A DNA stretch of 64,000 nt from Betaproteobacteria bacterium CG2_30_68_42 (GCA_001872285.1 MNXU01000051.1:107-64106); one strand, 5' to 3'; positions 4,001 to 46,421 are shown, counted from the stretch's first letter. Program-made: numbers and translations. Notes: generated by a model from the sequence alone, not told the origin.

Positions 4001-4269
4001 TCCGCGCCCGCTTCGTCCGCGCGATCGGCGAGATCGGCCATCACTGGGAACGATCGGAGCAGTGGGAGCGGGCTCTCGCCTGCTACGAGAGCTGCCTGGA
4101 AGCCGATCCGGTGGTGGAGGCCTTCTACCGCAATCTCATGGTTTGCTACCGGCGCACGGGCCGGCGCGCAGAGGCGATCGAGACCTTCGACCGGCTGCGC
4201 AGGGCGCTTGCCGTGCTCGGCGTGAAACCTTCGTCCGAAACGCGCGCCCTGCTCGAGAAGCTGGCGTAG
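1058..4269 (+). pseudogene. MalT/AfsR(SARP)-like regulator (NTPase + TPR-like middle + OmpR-type wHTH/BTAD), disrupted by a frameshift near 1900-1915
   Basis: The N-terminal part is in ORF 950..1921 (Walker A VSGPPGCGKTT; ...QGWAAGLVLL...FLMRTAFLPQMTAA). It continues in ORF 1192..4269 from ...AREVSGEERAEEILAGLYRDNHFV. The C-terminus reads FRVRCLGSFELLRHDAP...RRPLEMLKLLIA...YFWVDVWAF...YRNLMVCYRRTGRRAEAIETFDRL. The two parts are offset by one nucleotide. Confidence 0.7.
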
Positions 4270-4850: not shown

Positions 4851-4887
4851 CGCAACGGCCGGTCGGTGTCGGGAAGCGGGCCGCCGC

Positions 4888-4955
4888 GTTCAGCCGAGGG
4901 CGATCCGGCGCGGTGCCGCGCAAACGGGCTCGAGATCGGGACCGCGCAAGATGCG
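4888..4955. repeat. copy 2 of the 68-bp direct repeat (partner at 916-983)
   Basis: See the entry at 916-983. This copy encodes the real C-terminus (RILRGPDLEPVCAAPRRIALG*) of the minus-strand gene 4890..5948. Confidence 0.85.
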
Positions 4956-5948
4956 CTGCCAGTAGGACTCGTGCGCCGGCGTTCCGGCCGGCCAGTCGGC
5001 GAGGAAGGCGCGTTCCCATGCGGGCGCGTCGTATTCCACGGGGATCGCCTCGATGCGCACGGTCGAGAGTTCTGCGCCATAGACTGCGGCCACAGGCGCG
5101 CGCGAGGCCGCGATCCGGGTGATCAGCCCGTGGCGCGTGGCGGCGAAGTTCGGCATGCCGGCCGCGCCGTTGTTGATCACCGCGCGTTCGCCGCCGCGGG
5201 TGTCGAAGATCCGGAAGACGGGAGCGCAGGTGTGACTGCTCGCGAAGACATCCACGAGGGAGTCGCGGAACACTGCGCGCAGCCAGTCCGCCTGGCCGGG
5301 ATCGTCGAGCGCCTGCCGGTCGAAGCGCCAGCCGGCGAGATTGCCCGCGTCGCCATGCACCACGGCGATCCGGAGCCGGCCGACCTCGAACAGCGCGTGC
5401 ATCGGCAGCCGCGCGAGGCGCGCGAGCAGGGCCGGGAAGCGCAGCGCGGTCTGGCGCAATCGCGCATGGATGCGATTCGAGCGCTCCACCGTCTCCGGCG
5501 CGACTTCCGGCGGATAGGCGCAGCCGCAGCCGATGCCTTCGTCATCGCCGGCGAGCGCGACCTCAACGTTGCCCGCAAGCGCGCAGTGCGCTGCTACGCC
5601 GCGGTCGATGCGCTCGAAGCTCTCGTCGTCGATGTCGAACCAGTGGAAATCGCCGTTGAAGGCGATCGTCACCGGCTGCGTTTCGCGCGCGGCGAGCGCG
5701 CTGATCGCCTCAAGCGCATGGACGTTGCCATAGAGTCCGCCGGCGACATAGAGCACTTCGGCGCGCCGCACGGGGGCCGAGGCGAAGATCGTGGCGGGGT
5801 ACGACCAGCGCAGCGGGCAGGCGCGCCCGGGCGTCCGCAGCGACGCGATCGGTGCGGCGTTCAGCGGGCGAAGCGTGTCGCATCCCATGGCGCGCACCCG
5901 ATGCTTCACCGTCGCCCCGCCCTGGACGCGCGCCGGCGTCGCTCGCAA
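4890..5948 (-). CDS. metallophosphoesterase-like protein co-transcribed with arsS (start may be the ATG at 5888)
   Basis: ORF 4890..5948 begins 4 nt after the arsS stop. Translation contains VLYVAGGLYGNVHALEAI...IAFNGDFHWFDID...VVHGDAGN...ASSHTC, a calcineurin-like phosphoesterase pattern. Confidence 0.7.
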   Translation of the reverse strand: MRATPARVQGGATVKHRVRAMGCDTLRPLNAAPIASLRTPGRACPLRWSYPATIFASAPVRRAEVLYVAGGLYGNVHALEAISALAARETQPVTIAFNGDFHWFDIDDESFERIDRGVAAHCALAGNVEVALAGDDEGIGCGCAYPPEVAPETVERSNRIHARLRQTALRFPALLARLARLPMHALFEVGRLRIAVVHGDAGNLAGWRFDRQALDDPGQADWLRAVFRDSLVDVFASSHTCAPVFRIFDTRGGERAVINNGAAGMPNFAATRHGLITRIAASRAPVAAVYGAELSTVRIEAIPVEYDAPAWERAFLADWPAGTPAHESYWQRILRGPDLEPVCAAPRRIALG

Positions 5949-10242: not shown

Positions 10243-10269
10243 GAGACCCGGAACCCGGAACCCGCAACG
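10243..10269 (-). repeat. one-armed heptad element (GGGTTCC x2 + GGGTCTC on the minus strand) between rhodanese and the MFS gene
   Basis: The plus strand reads GAGACCC GGAACCC GGAACCC GCAACG. On the minus (mRNA) strand it is CGTTGC-GGGTTCC-GGGTTCC-GGGTCTC...AAGTTGCG, the same heptad + GTTGCG grammar as the bzd intergenic elements. Confidence 0.5.
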
Positions 10270-16302: not shown

Positions 16303-16305
16303 AAC

Positions 16306-16380
16306 GGTTTCAGGTTTCACGTTGCGCGTCGCGGCGAGCGCTGCCAACGTCGCAAACCACTGGAACCTGAAACCTGAAAT
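16306..16380 (+). repeat. heptad-repeat hairpin element A (GGTTTCA x2 ... TGGAACC TGAAACC TGAAAT)
   Basis: Fills the 81-nt GNAT-PHP spacer. A 14-bp stem pairs 16306-16319 with 16361-16374, including one G-U pair. The inner GTTGCG/CGCAAAC pair flanks a GC-rich core. Confidence 0.8.
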
Positions 16381-16383
16381 GCA

Positions 16384-19591: not shown

Positions 19592-20365
19592 GTGGCCGAA
19601 TCCGGAACCGTACGCTATGCGCTGTTCGACGCGCTGGTCACCGTGACCATCGATCGTCCGCCGCACAACGTGCTCGACATCGCGCTGATGCAAGAGCTGA
19701 ACGGGGCGCTGGATCGCGCCTCGCGCGAGAGTACCGCGAAAGTGCTGATGATCACCGCCGCGGGCGGCAAGGTGTTCTCGGCCGGAGTCGACGTGATGGA
19801 TCACACGCCCGACAAGGTGGTGCAGATGATCGAGGTGTTCCACGGCATCCTCAAGCGCCTGATGGTGTTCCCGCTGCCGACGGTGGCCGCGGTCAACGGC
19901 TCGGCCTTCGGCGGCGGCTGCGAGCTTGCGATCGCCTGCGACATGGTGGTGGCGGCGGAGGGCGCGAAGCTGGGCCAGCCCGAGATCAAGCTGGGCGTGT
20001 TCCCGCCGATCGCAGCGATCCTGATGCCCAGGATCCTGCCCCTGCCGCGCGTGATGGAGATGCTGCTCGGCGGCAACCCGATCGGGGCGCGCGAAGCCTT
20101 CGAGCTGGGGATGGTGAACCGCGTGTTCGCGCGCGAAGCCTTCGAGCGCGAGTGCCGCGAATTCGTTGCCCAGTTCCTGTCGCTGAGCCGCGTGGCGCTG
20201 CTCTACACCAAGAAGGCGATCCGCGAAGCCGCGGGCAAGCCCTTCTTCGAGGCGCTGTTCAACGTGGAGCAGATCTACCTCAAGGAACTCATGGCCACCC
20301 ACGACGCGGTCGAGGGACTCAATTCGTTCATGGAAAAACGCAAACCGGTCTGGCTCGACAGGTGA
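19592..20365 (+). CDS. bzdW: cyclohexa-1,5-diene-1-carbonyl-CoA hydratase (crotonase family)
   Basis: SD GGGAGGAA, then GTG at 19592. 257 aa. VFSAGVDV...AAVNGSAFGGGCELAIACDM is an enoyl-CoA hydratase fold in the bzdW position. Confidence 0.85.
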   Translation: MAESGTVRYALFDALVTVTIDRPPHNVLDIALMQELNGALDRASRESTAKVLMITAAGGKVFSAGVDVMDHTPDKVVQMIEVFHGILKRLMVFPLPTVAAVNGSAFGGGCELAIACDMVVAAEGAKLGQPEIKLGVFPPIAAILMPRILPLPRVMEMLLGGNPIGAREAFELGMVNRVFAREAFERECREFVAQFLSLSRVALLYTKKAIREAAGKPFFEALFNVEQIYLKELMATHDAVEGLNSFMEKRKPVWLDR

Positions 20366-20375
20366 CAGACCGTAC

Positions 20376-20402
20376 GGTGCAATGAGCGAAGCGCATTGCA
20401 CC
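20376..20402 (+). repeat. hairpin GGTGCAATG-AGCGAAGCG-CATTGCACC
   Basis: Perfect 9-bp stem whose loop contains GCGAAGC. The 14-mer ATGAGCGAAGCGCA (20382-20395) recurs at 22851-22864 in the next long bzd spacer. Confidence 0.7.
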
Positions 20403-20423
20403 AAGCATGACGGACAGGTATCC

Positions 20424-20514
20424 GGTTTCGGGTTTCGGGTTTCAAGTTGCGCCGCGCCGCCGGTCGCACCCATGCAACCTGGAGCGTGAAACTTGAAACT
20501 TGAAACTTGAAACT
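20424..20514 (+). repeat. heptad-repeat hairpin element B (GGTTTCG x2 + GGTTTCA ... TGAAACT x4)
   Basis: 25 consecutive pairs between 20424-20448 and 20490-20514 if G-U is allowed (5 G-U pairs, all in the plus-strand RNA). The inner GTTGC/GCAAC pair flanks a GC-rich core. Confidence 0.85.
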
Positions 20515-20531
20515 GCTCATCGAGAGGGGAA

Positions 20532-21602
20532 ATGCTGGTGGAATTCATCGATACGTGGCAGATGACGGAGCCGGGGCGGCTCGCGCGGACCCGGGTCCCG
20601 ATGCCGGAACTCGCGCCGGGCGAGGTGGTGGTGGAGATCCGGGGGTGCGGGGTCTGCCACACCGACCTTTCGTATTTCTACCTGGGCGTGCCCACGGTGC
20701 AGAAGCCGCCGCTCTCGCTCGGCCACGAGATCGCGGGCGTGGTGGTCGCGGGGGATGCGGCGCTGGCGGGGCGCGAGGTGATCGTCCCCGCGGTCATCCC
20801 CTGCGGCGAGTGCGAGATCTGCAAGGCGGGGCGCGGCAACCGCTGCCTCGCGCAGAAGATGCCGGGCAATTCCATGGGCATCCATGGCGGGTTTGCGAGC
20901 CACATCGTCGTGCCCGGGAGGTTCCTGTGCGTGGTGGGAGAACGGGGTGCGATCCCGCTCGAGCATCTCGCGGTGGTGGCCGACGCGGTCACCACACCCT
21001 ACCAGGCGGCGGTGCGCGCCGGGCTCGTGCCGGGCGACCGGGTGATCGTGATCGGCGCAGCCGGCGGGGTGGGCTCCTTCATGACCCAGACCGCCAAGGC
21101 GATGGGCGCGCGCGCGGTGATCGGCATCGACCTCAACGAGGCGAAGCTCAAGCGCATGGAGGGCTTCGGCGCCGACTTCACCATCAACCCGAAGGGACTC
21201 TCCACGAAGGACGTGAAGGAAGCGATCAAGGGCTTCTGCAAGGCGCACGGTCTGCCCGCGAACTTCGGCTGGAAGATCTTCGAGGTGACCGGCAGCCGCC
21301 CCGGCCAGGAGCTGGCGCTCGCGCTGCTGTCCTTCCTCGGCACCCTGGTGGTGGTGGGCTACGGCACCGAAGAGACGAGCTACATGCTCTCCAGGCTGAT
21401 GGCCTTCGACGCCCAGATCATCGGCACCTGGGGCTGCACGCCGGACAAGTATGCCGACGTGCTCGCGATGTGTCTGGACGGGCGCATCCGGCTCGAGCCC
21501 TTCGTGGAAGTGCAGCCGATGAGCCGCATCGCGCAGGTGTTCGACGATGCGCATCACGGACGCCTCGATCGGCGCGTGGTGCTGACCCCCGATTTCGACT
21601 GA
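20532..21602 (+). CDS. bzdX: 6-hydroxycyclohex-1-ene-1-carbonyl-CoA dehydrogenase (Zn-dependent MDR alcohol dehydrogenase family)
   Basis: 356 aa. GCGVCHTDLSYFY...GHEIAGVV...VIGAAGGVGSF. In the bzdX/had position. Confidence 0.85.
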   Translation: MLVEFIDTWQMTEPGRLARTRVPMPELAPGEVVVEIRGCGVCHTDLSYFYLGVPTVQKPPLSLGHEIAGVVVAGDAALAGREVIVPAVIPCGECEICKAGRGNRCLAQKMPGNSMGIHGGFASHIVVPGRFLCVVGERGAIPLEHLAVVADAVTTPYQAAVRAGLVPGDRVIVIGAAGGVGSFMTQTAKAMGARAVIGIDLNEAKLKRMEGFGADFTINPKGLSTKDVKEAIKGFCKAHGLPANFGWKIFEVTGSRPGQELALALLSFLGTLVVVGYGTEETSYMLSRLMAFDAQIIGTWGCTPDKYADVLAMCLDGRIRLEPFVEVQPMSRIAQVFDDAHHGRLDRRVVLTPDFD

Positions 21603-22754: not shown

Positions 22755-22759
22755 ATTGA

Positions 22760-22868
22760 GTTTCAGGTTCCAGGTTCCAGGTTTCGGGTCGTGCAGGTCG
22801 GGTCGGGCGCGATGCGGAGCCGATCCGGCGGGGCGGTGCTGCACGCTGCGATGAGCGAAGCGCAATCG
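22760..22868 (+). repeat. heptad element D (one-armed): GTTTCAG GTTCCAG GTTCCAG GTTTCGG + CGTGCAG/CTGCACG core + ATGAGCGAAGCGCA hairpin motif
   Basis: Heptads at 22760-22787. A 7-bp inverted repeat (22790-22796 / 22839-22845) flanks a GC-rich core. The shared 14-mer lies at 22851-22864. No inverse heptads follow. Confidence 0.65.
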
Positions 22869-45322: not shown

Positions 45323-46321
45323 TCAGTCGGTCGAATCGAGCAGGCCGTAGCGGCGGATGTTGCGATCGGCGATTTCCTGAAGCCCCGCGATGATGTCGAT
45401 GCGCGGGGGCCTGCCGAACAGATGGGCGAAGCGCTTCTGCGGCCGGAGGTACTCCTCCACCGGAACCGGCTTGCGGATTTTCGACACGCCGGTGACCTCC
45501 CCATCCTCGGCCTCGAACACCGGGAACAGGCCGGTTTCCCTGGCGAGCCGCGCGATGCGGATGGTCTCGTGCGAGCCATGGCCCCAGCCGACCGGGCAGG
45601 GCACCAGGATGTGCAGGTAGCGTGCGCCGTGGAAGCTCATGGCGCGCGCGACCTTGTATTCGAGATCGCGCAGGTCGGCCACCGTCGCGGTGGCGACATA
45701 GGGGATCCCGTGCGCCATCGCGATCCGGGGCAGATCCTTGCCCTGGCCGAAGCAGTTGCCCGGCTGCGGGCCGACCGCCATCGTGGTCGCGGTGCGCGCG
45801 CCGGGCGGGGTCGCCGAGGAGCGCTGCACGCCGGTGTTCATGTAGGCTTCGTTGTCGTAGCAGATGTACAGGACATCGTCATTGCGCTCGAACATCCCCG
45901 ACAGGCAGCCGAAGCCGATGTCGGTGGTGCCGCCGTCGCCGCCCTGCGCCACCACGCGGACCTCGGCATGGCCCTTCACCTTCAGCGCGGCGGCGATGCC
46001 GGTCGCGACCGCCGCGGCGTTTCCGAACACCGAGTGGATCCAGGGAATCTGCCACGAGGTCTCCGGATACGGCGTCGAGAACACCTCGAGGCAGCCGGTC
46101 GCGTTCGCAGCGATCAGGCGGTTGCCGGTCGAGCGCATCGCGGCGTCGATCGCGTAGCGCGCGCCGAGCGCCTCGCCGCAACCCTGGCAGGCGCGGTGTC
46201 CGGAGTTGAGCGAGTTGATCCGGGCCATGTCGGCCTGGACGCTGCGCTCCTCGGGCGCGAGCAGGCGATTGCCGACGGTGAAGGTGCCGGTCTGGTAGAA
46301 CTTGACGGGTTGAAACGCCAT
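45323..46321 (-). CDS. 2-oxoacid:ferredoxin oxidoreductase subunit beta (TPP-binding)
   Basis: 332 aa with SD GGAGG. GHRACQGCGEAL...GGDGGTTDIGFGCLSGMFERNDDVLYICYDNEAYMNTGVQ. Confidence 0.9.
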   Translation of the reverse strand: MAFQPVKFYQTGTFTVGNRLLAPEERSVQADMARINSLNSGHRACQGCGEALGARYAIDAAMRSTGNRLIAANATGCLEVFSTPYPETSWQIPWIHSVFGNAAAVATGIAAALKVKGHAEVRVVAQGGDGGTTDIGFGCLSGMFERNDDVLYICYDNEAYMNTGVQRSSATPPGARTATTMAVGPQPGNCFGQGKDLPRIAMAHGIPYVATATVADLRDLEYKVARAMSFHGARYLHILVPCPVGWGHGSHETIRIARLARETGLFPVFEAEDGEVTGVSKIRKPVPVEEYLRPQKRFAHLFGRPPRIDIIAGLQEIADRNIRRYGLLDSTD

Positions 46322-46339: not shown

Positions 46340-46421
46340 GGGGTCAGTTCTTTACTTTATAGTTTTTCCGAAACCGGCATATGCTGAAGGCATCGAGACT
46401 ATAAAGTAAAGAACTGACCCC
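46340..46421. repeat. 82-bp AT-rich perfect hairpin / MITE-like element (24-bp perfect inverted repeat, 34-nt loop)
   Basis: GGGGTCAGTTCTTTACTTTATAGT (46340-46363) is the exact reverse complement of ACTATAAAGTAAAGAACTGACCCC (46398-46421). The arms are 9/24 G+C in a high-GC genome. It lies in the 113-nt spacer between the alpha and beta genes. Confidence 0.9.

Follow-up and report, generated by a model that had tools for sequence, protein, structure and literature searches.

A recent, lineage-specific heptad repeat of mosaic structure and variable length underlies the predicted stem-loop in the bzdW-bzdX spacer of an uncultured betaproteobacterium

The 166-nt spacer between bzdW and bzdX (positions 20366-20531 of the 64-kb stretch of DNA analysed here, hereafter the window) carries a short palindrome, hairpin 1, and a long stem built of heptameric repeats, together termed element B. 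Comparison of this spacer with its paralogues, natural alleles and orthologues has shown element B to belong to a repeat family that is recent, lineage-specific, mosaic and length-polymorphic. As judged by alignment with related clusters, it is shown to have arisen in the hydratase-dehydrogenase spacer after the split from relatives with a 91% identical BzdX and, as judged by alignment within the window, to have been pieced together from sequence with paralogues in two further spacers of the gene cluster. We consider it fairly probable that element B represents an intergenic repeat confined to this lineage and prone to slippage and, if transcribed, an intercistronic hairpin that is a putative decay barrier or RNase III target. 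Its architecture may be described as a REP-like palindromic unit (hairpin 1), followed by inverted heptameric arrays (RGTTYCN) around a GC-rich core. The complementarity of the two arms would have come mainly from repeat dynamics at the DNA level, i.e. amplification of units and copying between nearby elements or arms, and probably not from long-term selection on an RNA.

The gene 5' of the spacer encodes an enoyl-CoA hydratase of the dienoyl-CoA hydratase type, and the BzdX gene downstream is had, encoding 6-hydroxycyclohex-1-ene-1-carbonyl-CoA dehydrogenase (TIGR03201, E 4e-164). It is followed by oah (TIGR03200, E 1e-174), and an OYE-type oxidoreductase gene is also found in the flanks. These assignments agree with the bzdW-bzdX context proposed in an earlier note on this DNA. 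Two small ORFs, 20152-20385 (plus strand) and 20275-20520 (minus strand), were discarded as mechanical calls in GC-rich DNA, both of them overlapping the hydratase gene. The parts of the spacer are listed below.

20376-20402, plus strand: hairpin 1, a REP-like palindromic unit with a perfect 9-bp stem, GGTGCAATG (20376-20384) pairing with CATTGCACC (20394-20402)
20385-20393, plus strand: loop of hairpin 1, AGCGAAGCG, read from the sequence
20417-20448, plus strand: left (5') heptad arm, a degenerate GGTATCC, two GGTTTCG, one GGTTTCA and AGTT, from a pattern scan
20449-20486, plus strand: GC-rich core, imperfectly self-paired in the MFE structure and alignable with the core of element A (see below)
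20487-20514, plus strand: right (3') heptad arm, four TGAAACT units (TRF, 4.0 copies, 100% match), from an inverted-repeat search
20522-20530, plus strand: Shine-Dalgarno sequence GAGAGGGGA, outside the stem; the ATG of had is at 20532-20534

Hairpin 1, a GCAATGAGCGAAGCGCATTGC-like unit, is 27 nt long and falls within the 20-40 nt range of the extragenic palindromes known as REP or BIME. The left arm is strictly periodic over 20424-20443 (period 7, 2.9 copies, 100% match by TRF), and its array probably begins one degenerate unit earlier, with GGTATCC at 20417, since a natural 14-nt deletion variant takes out exactly that stretch. The segment of the right arm that pairs with it is 20490-20514 (AACT and three TGAAACT units). 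The arms 20424-20448 and 20490-20514 are convergent and 41 nt apart, with the G-rich strand first; element A (see below) is arranged in this way too. The core opens with GCGCC, which together with the final GTT of the left arm gives GTTGCGCC, and it also contains GCAACCTGGA.

Both structures reported in the earlier note were recovered in the sequence at their coordinates, and the 9-bp hairpin and the heptad stem are both present in the MFE fold. The stem, previously given as 25 bp, is real but slightly longer: the fold predicts 26 consecutive pairs, 20423-20448 with 20490-20515, by addition of C20423-G20515, and the core is partly paired. For plus-strand RNA, the predicted energy is -72 kcal/mol for the whole spacer (z -4.63, equalled by 0 of 200 shuffles), -50.1 kcal/mol for the heptad hairpin alone (z -5.82) and -17.3 kcal/mol for hairpin 1 alone (z -3.58). 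Folding of the minus strand is weaker: its spacer reaches -63.6 kcal/mol (z -3.36) and its heptad hairpin -38.8 kcal/mol (z -2.59), so that the plus-strand RNA is indeed the more stable one, as had been proposed. The bzdX Shine-Dalgarno sequence lies outside the stem, in keeping with the view that the element is not a classical translational mask.

Two features that had been put forward as RNA-like carry less weight than it seemed. The five G-U pairs are present; counted by repeat unit, they are two independent differences, GGTTTCG on the left against AGTTTCA in the complement of the right arm, which appear five times because the units are tandem copies multiplied by amplification. The chance that two transitions would both give G-U pairs on one given strand is about 1 in 4. 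The GCGAAGC motif is likewise present in the loop of hairpin 1, where the fold predicts a mini-hairpin of 2 bp and a GAA loop, but the window holds 50 occurrences of it where about 30 are expected, and its presence in this loop is therefore not diagnostic. The exceptional stability of the d(GCGAAGC) mini-hairpin of Hirao et al. was reportedly described for DNA; the likeness to element B consists of the motif in the loop. In a related unit of metagenome contig L223, GCGCAGC replaces GCGAAGC, and the motif is thus not conserved as such. With two G3 tracts and one G2 tract, the left arm, CCGGTTTCGGGTTTCGGGTTTCA, falls short of the four G3 tracts of a G-quadruplex. Neither a promoter-like nor a terminator-like site was found in 20366-20531, both strands having been scanned for terminators, and no U tract follows the 3' end of the stem, whose tail is GCUCAUCGAGAGG. 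Rfam gave no match at the gathering score in the window or in 17 heptad-hairpin loci; a mir-981 match was rejected as chance (20.5 bits against a threshold of 51).

Element B has relatives inside the window. A scan for the RGTTYCN pattern gave 20 matches where 2.1 were expected. Period-7 repeats of this kind occur at four places, all intergenic and all at 10.2-22.8 kb, within 12.5 kb of the 64 kb; all four lie in or beside the bzd cluster, and the other ~50 kb contain none of them. The three sites other than element B, and a partial copy of hairpin 1, are listed below.

16306-16381, plus strand: element A, a paralogous heptad hairpin (inverted pair; fold z -3.77) between an acetyltransferase gene and a PHP-domain gene
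22759-22785, plus strand: solo heptad array, AGTTTCA GGTTCCA GGTTCCA GGTTTCG, 4 nt after the oah stop codon, no inverted partner
10243-10268, minus strand: solo heptad array, GGTTCCG GGTTCCG GGTCTCG, 7 nt after the stop codon of a rhodanese gene on the minus strand (gene position taken from contig L121)
22843-22864, plus strand: paralogue of the left arm and loop of hairpin 1, ACGCTGCGATGAGCGAAGCGCA, in the spacer downstream of oah

The heptad hairpin of element B can be aligned end to end with element A, arms and core included, with a local score of 43 against 14.4 +/- 2.3 for shuffles. Element A occupies its entire spacer, and its heptads begin 3 nt past the stop codon TGA; the corresponding distance to the upstream stop is 4 nt for the array at 22759, 7 nt for that at 10268 and 51-58 nt for element B. 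Within 16303-16383, TGAAAC-G-GTTTCA forms a palindrome of its own, and 2 nt separate the end of the right arm from the ATG of the PHP-domain gene, with no obvious free Shine-Dalgarno sequence. The solo arrays at 22759-22785 and 10243-10268 fold no better than shuffles (z +0.48 and about +0.5, respectively). The left half and loop of hairpin 1 (20374-20395) match 22843-22864 at 20 of 22 bases, and the exact 14-mer ATGAGCGAAGCGCA occurs only twice in 64 kb, at 20382 and within 22843-22864. By these alignments, element B is a mosaic of modules that are present, in another order, in two further spacers of the same cluster.

Many metagenome contigs, of groundwater or other origin, encode the exact BzdX protein, and groundwater samples with the contig include ERZ27293362, ERZ909571 and JGI 3300007985. 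The organism is uncultured; the closest named relatives of the protein are Rhodocyclales, e.g. Georgfuchsia (77%). Spacer alleles were compared among six contigs encoding identical BzdX, and these spacers are the same except for whole-heptad differences. Three contigs carry the 166-nt allele. In L122 the spacer is 159 nt long and the right arm is short by one unit, whereas in L125 it is 152 nt long through a 14-nt deletion of two left-arm units, including the degenerate GGTATCC; L123 has an assembly N gap exactly at the left arm. These heptad-number alleles, which come from short-read metagenome assemblies and may partly be assembly errors, suggest that the arms gain and lose whole heptads independently, and this points to replication slippage.

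The orthologous spacers are all much shorter. In seven orthologous clusters, with BzdX identities of 91, 84, 82, 81, 80, 79 and 77%, the hydratase-dehydrogenase spacer measures 42, 31, 14, 46, 43, 21 and 20 nt, respectively, and heptad pairs were found nowhere in the locus in any of the seven. Alignment of the element B spacer with the 91% relative is limited to its first ~12 nt and its Shine-Dalgarno end, which implies that ~135 nt are new. In the same relative, the orthologue of the element A spacer holds degenerate units only, and its fold is at chance level (z -0.38). The cluster of contig L376 (BzdX 80%) has a ~90-nt double-hairpin repeat, CACCGGCGAAAGCCGGTG ... TTCCGGCTTGCGCCGGAA, in the had-oah spacer and the spacer downstream of oah (copies at 4069-4227 and 5359-5670), of a family that differs from the heptad hairpins. 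On this comparison, the intercistronic spacers of the operon appear to have been colonised by different repeats in different lineages.

Three other explanations have to be weighed against these data. The earlier note saw in the element a processing, stability or attenuation signal. On this reading it would be a cis-regulatory RNA dedicated to the bzd operon, whose stem-loop and G-U pairs would have been selected and would set the ratio of the upstream to the downstream enzymes. The very stable sense fold, which beats the antisense fold, the free Shine-Dalgarno sequence and the similar second hairpin (element A) in the same cluster all speak for it, as does the experimental precedent of a heptameric-SSR hairpin processed by RNase III (PMC12721329). 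That note itself held that a lack of conserved pairing in orthologous spacers would count against such a signal, and the element is missing from seven of seven such spacers (14-46 nt). Its arms, moreover, vary independently by whole units, its G-U pairs come down to two unit-level differences, U tract, terminator and Rfam family match are lacking, and the solo arrays at 22759-22785 and 10243-10268 are without structure. The sense strand is the more stable one in elements A and B, by 6.2 and 8.7 kcal/mol, but no such bias exists over 13 heptad hairpins between co-directional genes, assigned with crude gene calls (5 sense, 7 antisense, 1 tie). A dedicated signal of this kind thus finds no support in the comparison and is unlikely. 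A long, GC-containing, intercistronic stem-loop could also be an intrinsic (Rho-independent) terminator or attenuator that separates the hydratase gene from the dehydrogenase gene; however, the stem is followed by GCUCAUCGAGAGGGG and no U run, the scan of the spacer was negative on both strands, and termination here would cut had and oah off from the operon, all of which makes this reading very hard to credit.

The element might also act as DNA, either as iterated protein-binding sites, one unit per 7 bp, or as non-B DNA (a cruciform or a two-tetrad G-quadruplex), with possible effects of such structures on replication, recombination or local supercoiling. The element B hairpin is stable as DNA as well (-26.1 kcal/mol, z -4.0). 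Whatever the unit, 39 of 44 sampled pairs have the G/T-rich array on the 5' side and its inverted partner on the 3' side (24 of 24 viral, and 15 of 20 genome loci among the matches listed), and in Xanthomonas the G-rich end of the heptamer arrays abuts the nearest ORF regardless of that ORF's orientation (PMC4692102); both observations point to a polarity at the DNA level. Furthermore, the GGGAATC repeats of Xanthomonas have been demonstrated to form G4 in vitro (PMC4692102). Against this, a canonical G4 is impossible with just two G3 tracts in the left arm, and no candidate binding protein is known. The sequence of the unit does not seem special either, since composition-matched control heptads form arrays in viral contigs about as often (27, 6 and 63 loci) as GGTTTCA (30 loci), and a privileged status of GGTTTCA was rejected on these counts. 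We therefore regard a DNA-level role as improbable.

If element B is a slippage-prone intergenic repeat, the question arises what it would do in a transcript. It is very probably transcribed within the operon, as gene order and motif scan suggest, because the catabolic cluster is co-directional and the spacer has no promoter- or terminator-like site. A 26-bp RNA helix upstream of a free Shine-Dalgarno sequence might then be a barrier to 3'-5' exonucleases or a substrate of RNase III, and a cut by the latter would let the upstream half of the transcript decay independently of the downstream half. The length of the stem would be set by the heptad copy number. A lineage-specific effect of the 26-bp helix on mRNA decay or RNase III processing is plausible, as judged from the predicted fold. 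Two counterpoints should be kept in mind. The clustering of four copies at the bzd cluster could mean a local function and not a genome-wide repeat, and the predicted sense-strand stability of elements A and B would fit selection at the RNA level, with n = 2.

Several known repeat systems resemble element B in part. REP, BIME and REPIN elements are defined at the genome level by high copy number and association with RAYT, and REP hairpins in mRNA can protect the upstream message from 3'-5' decay, as in the malE-malF REP. Element B shares with them short imperfect palindromes, a location in intercistronic or 3' regions, a mosaic of modules and a lineage-specific presence, but its arms are made of tandem heptads, which those of REPs are not. 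Two copies of the hairpin 1 module are found in the window, and in 22759-22864, as in contigs L148 and L223, the module is recombined with heptad arrays in another order. Heptamer tandem repeats of cyanobacteria, termed STRR, are said to have been described by Mazel et al. in 1990. TAACTGA repeats are found in Beggiatoaceae, cyanobacteria and Bacteroidetes (MacGregor 2015, PMC4679880). Both of these form intergenic arrays of 2-6 or more heptamers that are lineage-specific, often lie directly beside a coding region and are missing from the same spacer of close relatives; they differ from element B in their units, in being nearly all direct repeats with no inverted partner and in mostly abutting a start codon.

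The closest parallel is found in Xanthomonas. The intergenic DNA of bacteria is enriched in repeats with a 7-nt unit, for example GGGAATC in Xanthomonas and GGGGA(C/T)T in Nostoc (Rehm et al. 2015, PMC4692102). Xanthomonas genomes hold about 180 copies of the former, and in each genome 70-75 pairs are convergent and have the potential to form a stem-loop; the copies are found near stop codons, on the coding strand, seldom occur between divergent genes, differ in length between close species and are mostly transcribed, and no function has been identified (PMC4692102). Element B resembles the Xanthomonas and Nostoc repeats in its 7-nt tandem units, its intergenic position, its convergent pairing and its variable unit number, and the family to which it belongs also lies near stop codons. 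In contrast, its unit is RGTTYCN and it has two G3 tracts, so that the G-quadruplex idea does not transfer; the Xanthomonas repeats are spread over the genome; here the four copies in the 64 kb covered are clustered, and a separate palindromic unit is joined to element B. With regard to function, the nearest case is the (ATCTTTC)n repeat in the 5'-UTR of hmw1A of Haemophilus influenzae, which forms a long RNA hairpin that is cut by RNase III and makes expression dependent on repeat number (PMC12721329). In both systems a heptameric SSR lies in an arm, a variable repeat number sets, or in element B would set, the length, and the helix, predicted in element B, is long enough for RNase III. The hmw1A hairpin, however, is located in a 5'-UTR behind a promoter, has one repetitive arm and was established by experiment, whereas element B is intercistronic, has two repetitive arms and is known from sequence.

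Similar hairpins are widely distributed. A genome scan for three RGTTYC units (GGTTYCNGGTTYCNGGTTYC), with one genome per species, gave at least 120 loci, and 20 of the 120 listed have an inverted partner array within 17-133 nt. Among the matches listed, the partnered loci come from Flavobacteriia, Acidobacteriota, Rhodothermaceae, Betaproteobacteria and others. Heptad-armed hairpins of the form GGTTTCA...TGAAACC and variants were noted at L022:2270-2344, L031:7322-7398, L040:5395-5537, L059:4228-4298, L090:2816-3003 and L108:4101-4229, with further ones at L012/L063 (Flavobacterium) and in many phyla among the matches listed. At L090:2844-2975, the 132 nt between the heptad arms hold the start of an ORF (MDVEDLDVYKKLCRLHIEVCDLAHKWPQE...), which presumably recalls the N-terminus of the four-helix-bundle (23S rRNA intervening-sequence) proteins. 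A metagenome scan with GGTTTCNGGTTTCNNGTTGCG gave many more such hairpins among the matches listed, e.g. L161, L177, L198, L238, L246 and L248; none of the matches listed overlaps the window. A large share of them, mostly from Ga0307489, were set aside because they look like eukaryotic telomeric arrays of the TTTAGGG type. The contigs of that data set (L135, L160, L201, L208, L212, L242 and others) carry long degenerate GGGTTTC/GGGTTGC/GGGTTTA (=TTTAGGG) arrays of telomeric or subtelomeric, eukaryotic and not bacterial appearance, which inflate metagenome searches for this heptad. A literature search with a sequence as the string gave no match. The hairpins lie between co-directional genes in 11 cases, convergent genes in 4 and divergent genes in 1, in a small sample based on a crude ORF caller that is unreliable in GC-rich DNA.

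The link between hairpin 1 and the heptads extends beyond the window. L148 and L223 are unrelated GC-rich metagenome contigs that were found by their heptads alone, and each has a hairpin-1-like unit within ~100 nt of them. The unit is GGCGCAATGAGCGAAGCGCGTTGCGCC in L148:5660-5800 (minus strand) and GGCGCAATGAGCGCAGCGAATTGCGCC in L223:1090-1250, where it is followed by four tandem copies of CCGAATGAGCGTAATCCGTTCTGG; the common pattern is GGCGCAATGAGCG[A/C]AGCG..TTGCGCC. Compared with hairpin 1 of the window, both units show a compensatory change from T-A to C-G. The hairpin 1 module and the heptad arrays thus seem, from their co-occurrence, to form one composite element and to travel together.

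A bolder proposal would treat heptad-armed hairpins as a widespread, unnamed intergenic class, with a G/T-rich array 5' and its complement 3', near gene ends, whose members would be slippage-tunable operon rheostats. The gain or loss of one 7-nt unit would alter the length of the helix, hence RNase III cleavage or the block to exonucleases, and finally the ratio of upstream to downstream enzymes. If so, the three heptad-number alleles with identical BzdX would be functional variants, and populations could retune the operon rapidly. This proposal is speculative, and we think it quite doubtful.

The observations on element B have practical consequences for annotation. A striking, stable stem-loop with RNA-like G-U pairs can be a by-product of tandem-repeat dynamics, and orthologous spacers should be checked before such a structure is called a riboregulator. 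Inverted pairs of heptamer repeats are already described in Xanthomonas; new here are a betaproteobacterial example inside a well-studied catabolic operon, the evidence of ongoing gain and loss of units in natural populations, the tie of heptad arrays to a separate palindromic unit and the consistent polarity of the arms across phyla. Should the hairpin be found to affect mRNA decay, it would provide a case from nature in which repeat number controls gene ratios within an operon.

Two other repeats were noted in the window. A perfect 24-bp inverted repeat, GGGGTCAGTTCTTTACTTTATAGT and ACTATAAAGTAAAGAACTGACCCC separated by 34 nt, is located at 46340-46421; it is AT-rich within DNA of 68% GC and lies in the 113-nt spacer of two minus-strand genes, just upstream of a start at 46321. 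Two direct copies of a 69-nt sequence, 87% identical and 4 kb apart, occur at 915-983 and 4887-4955.
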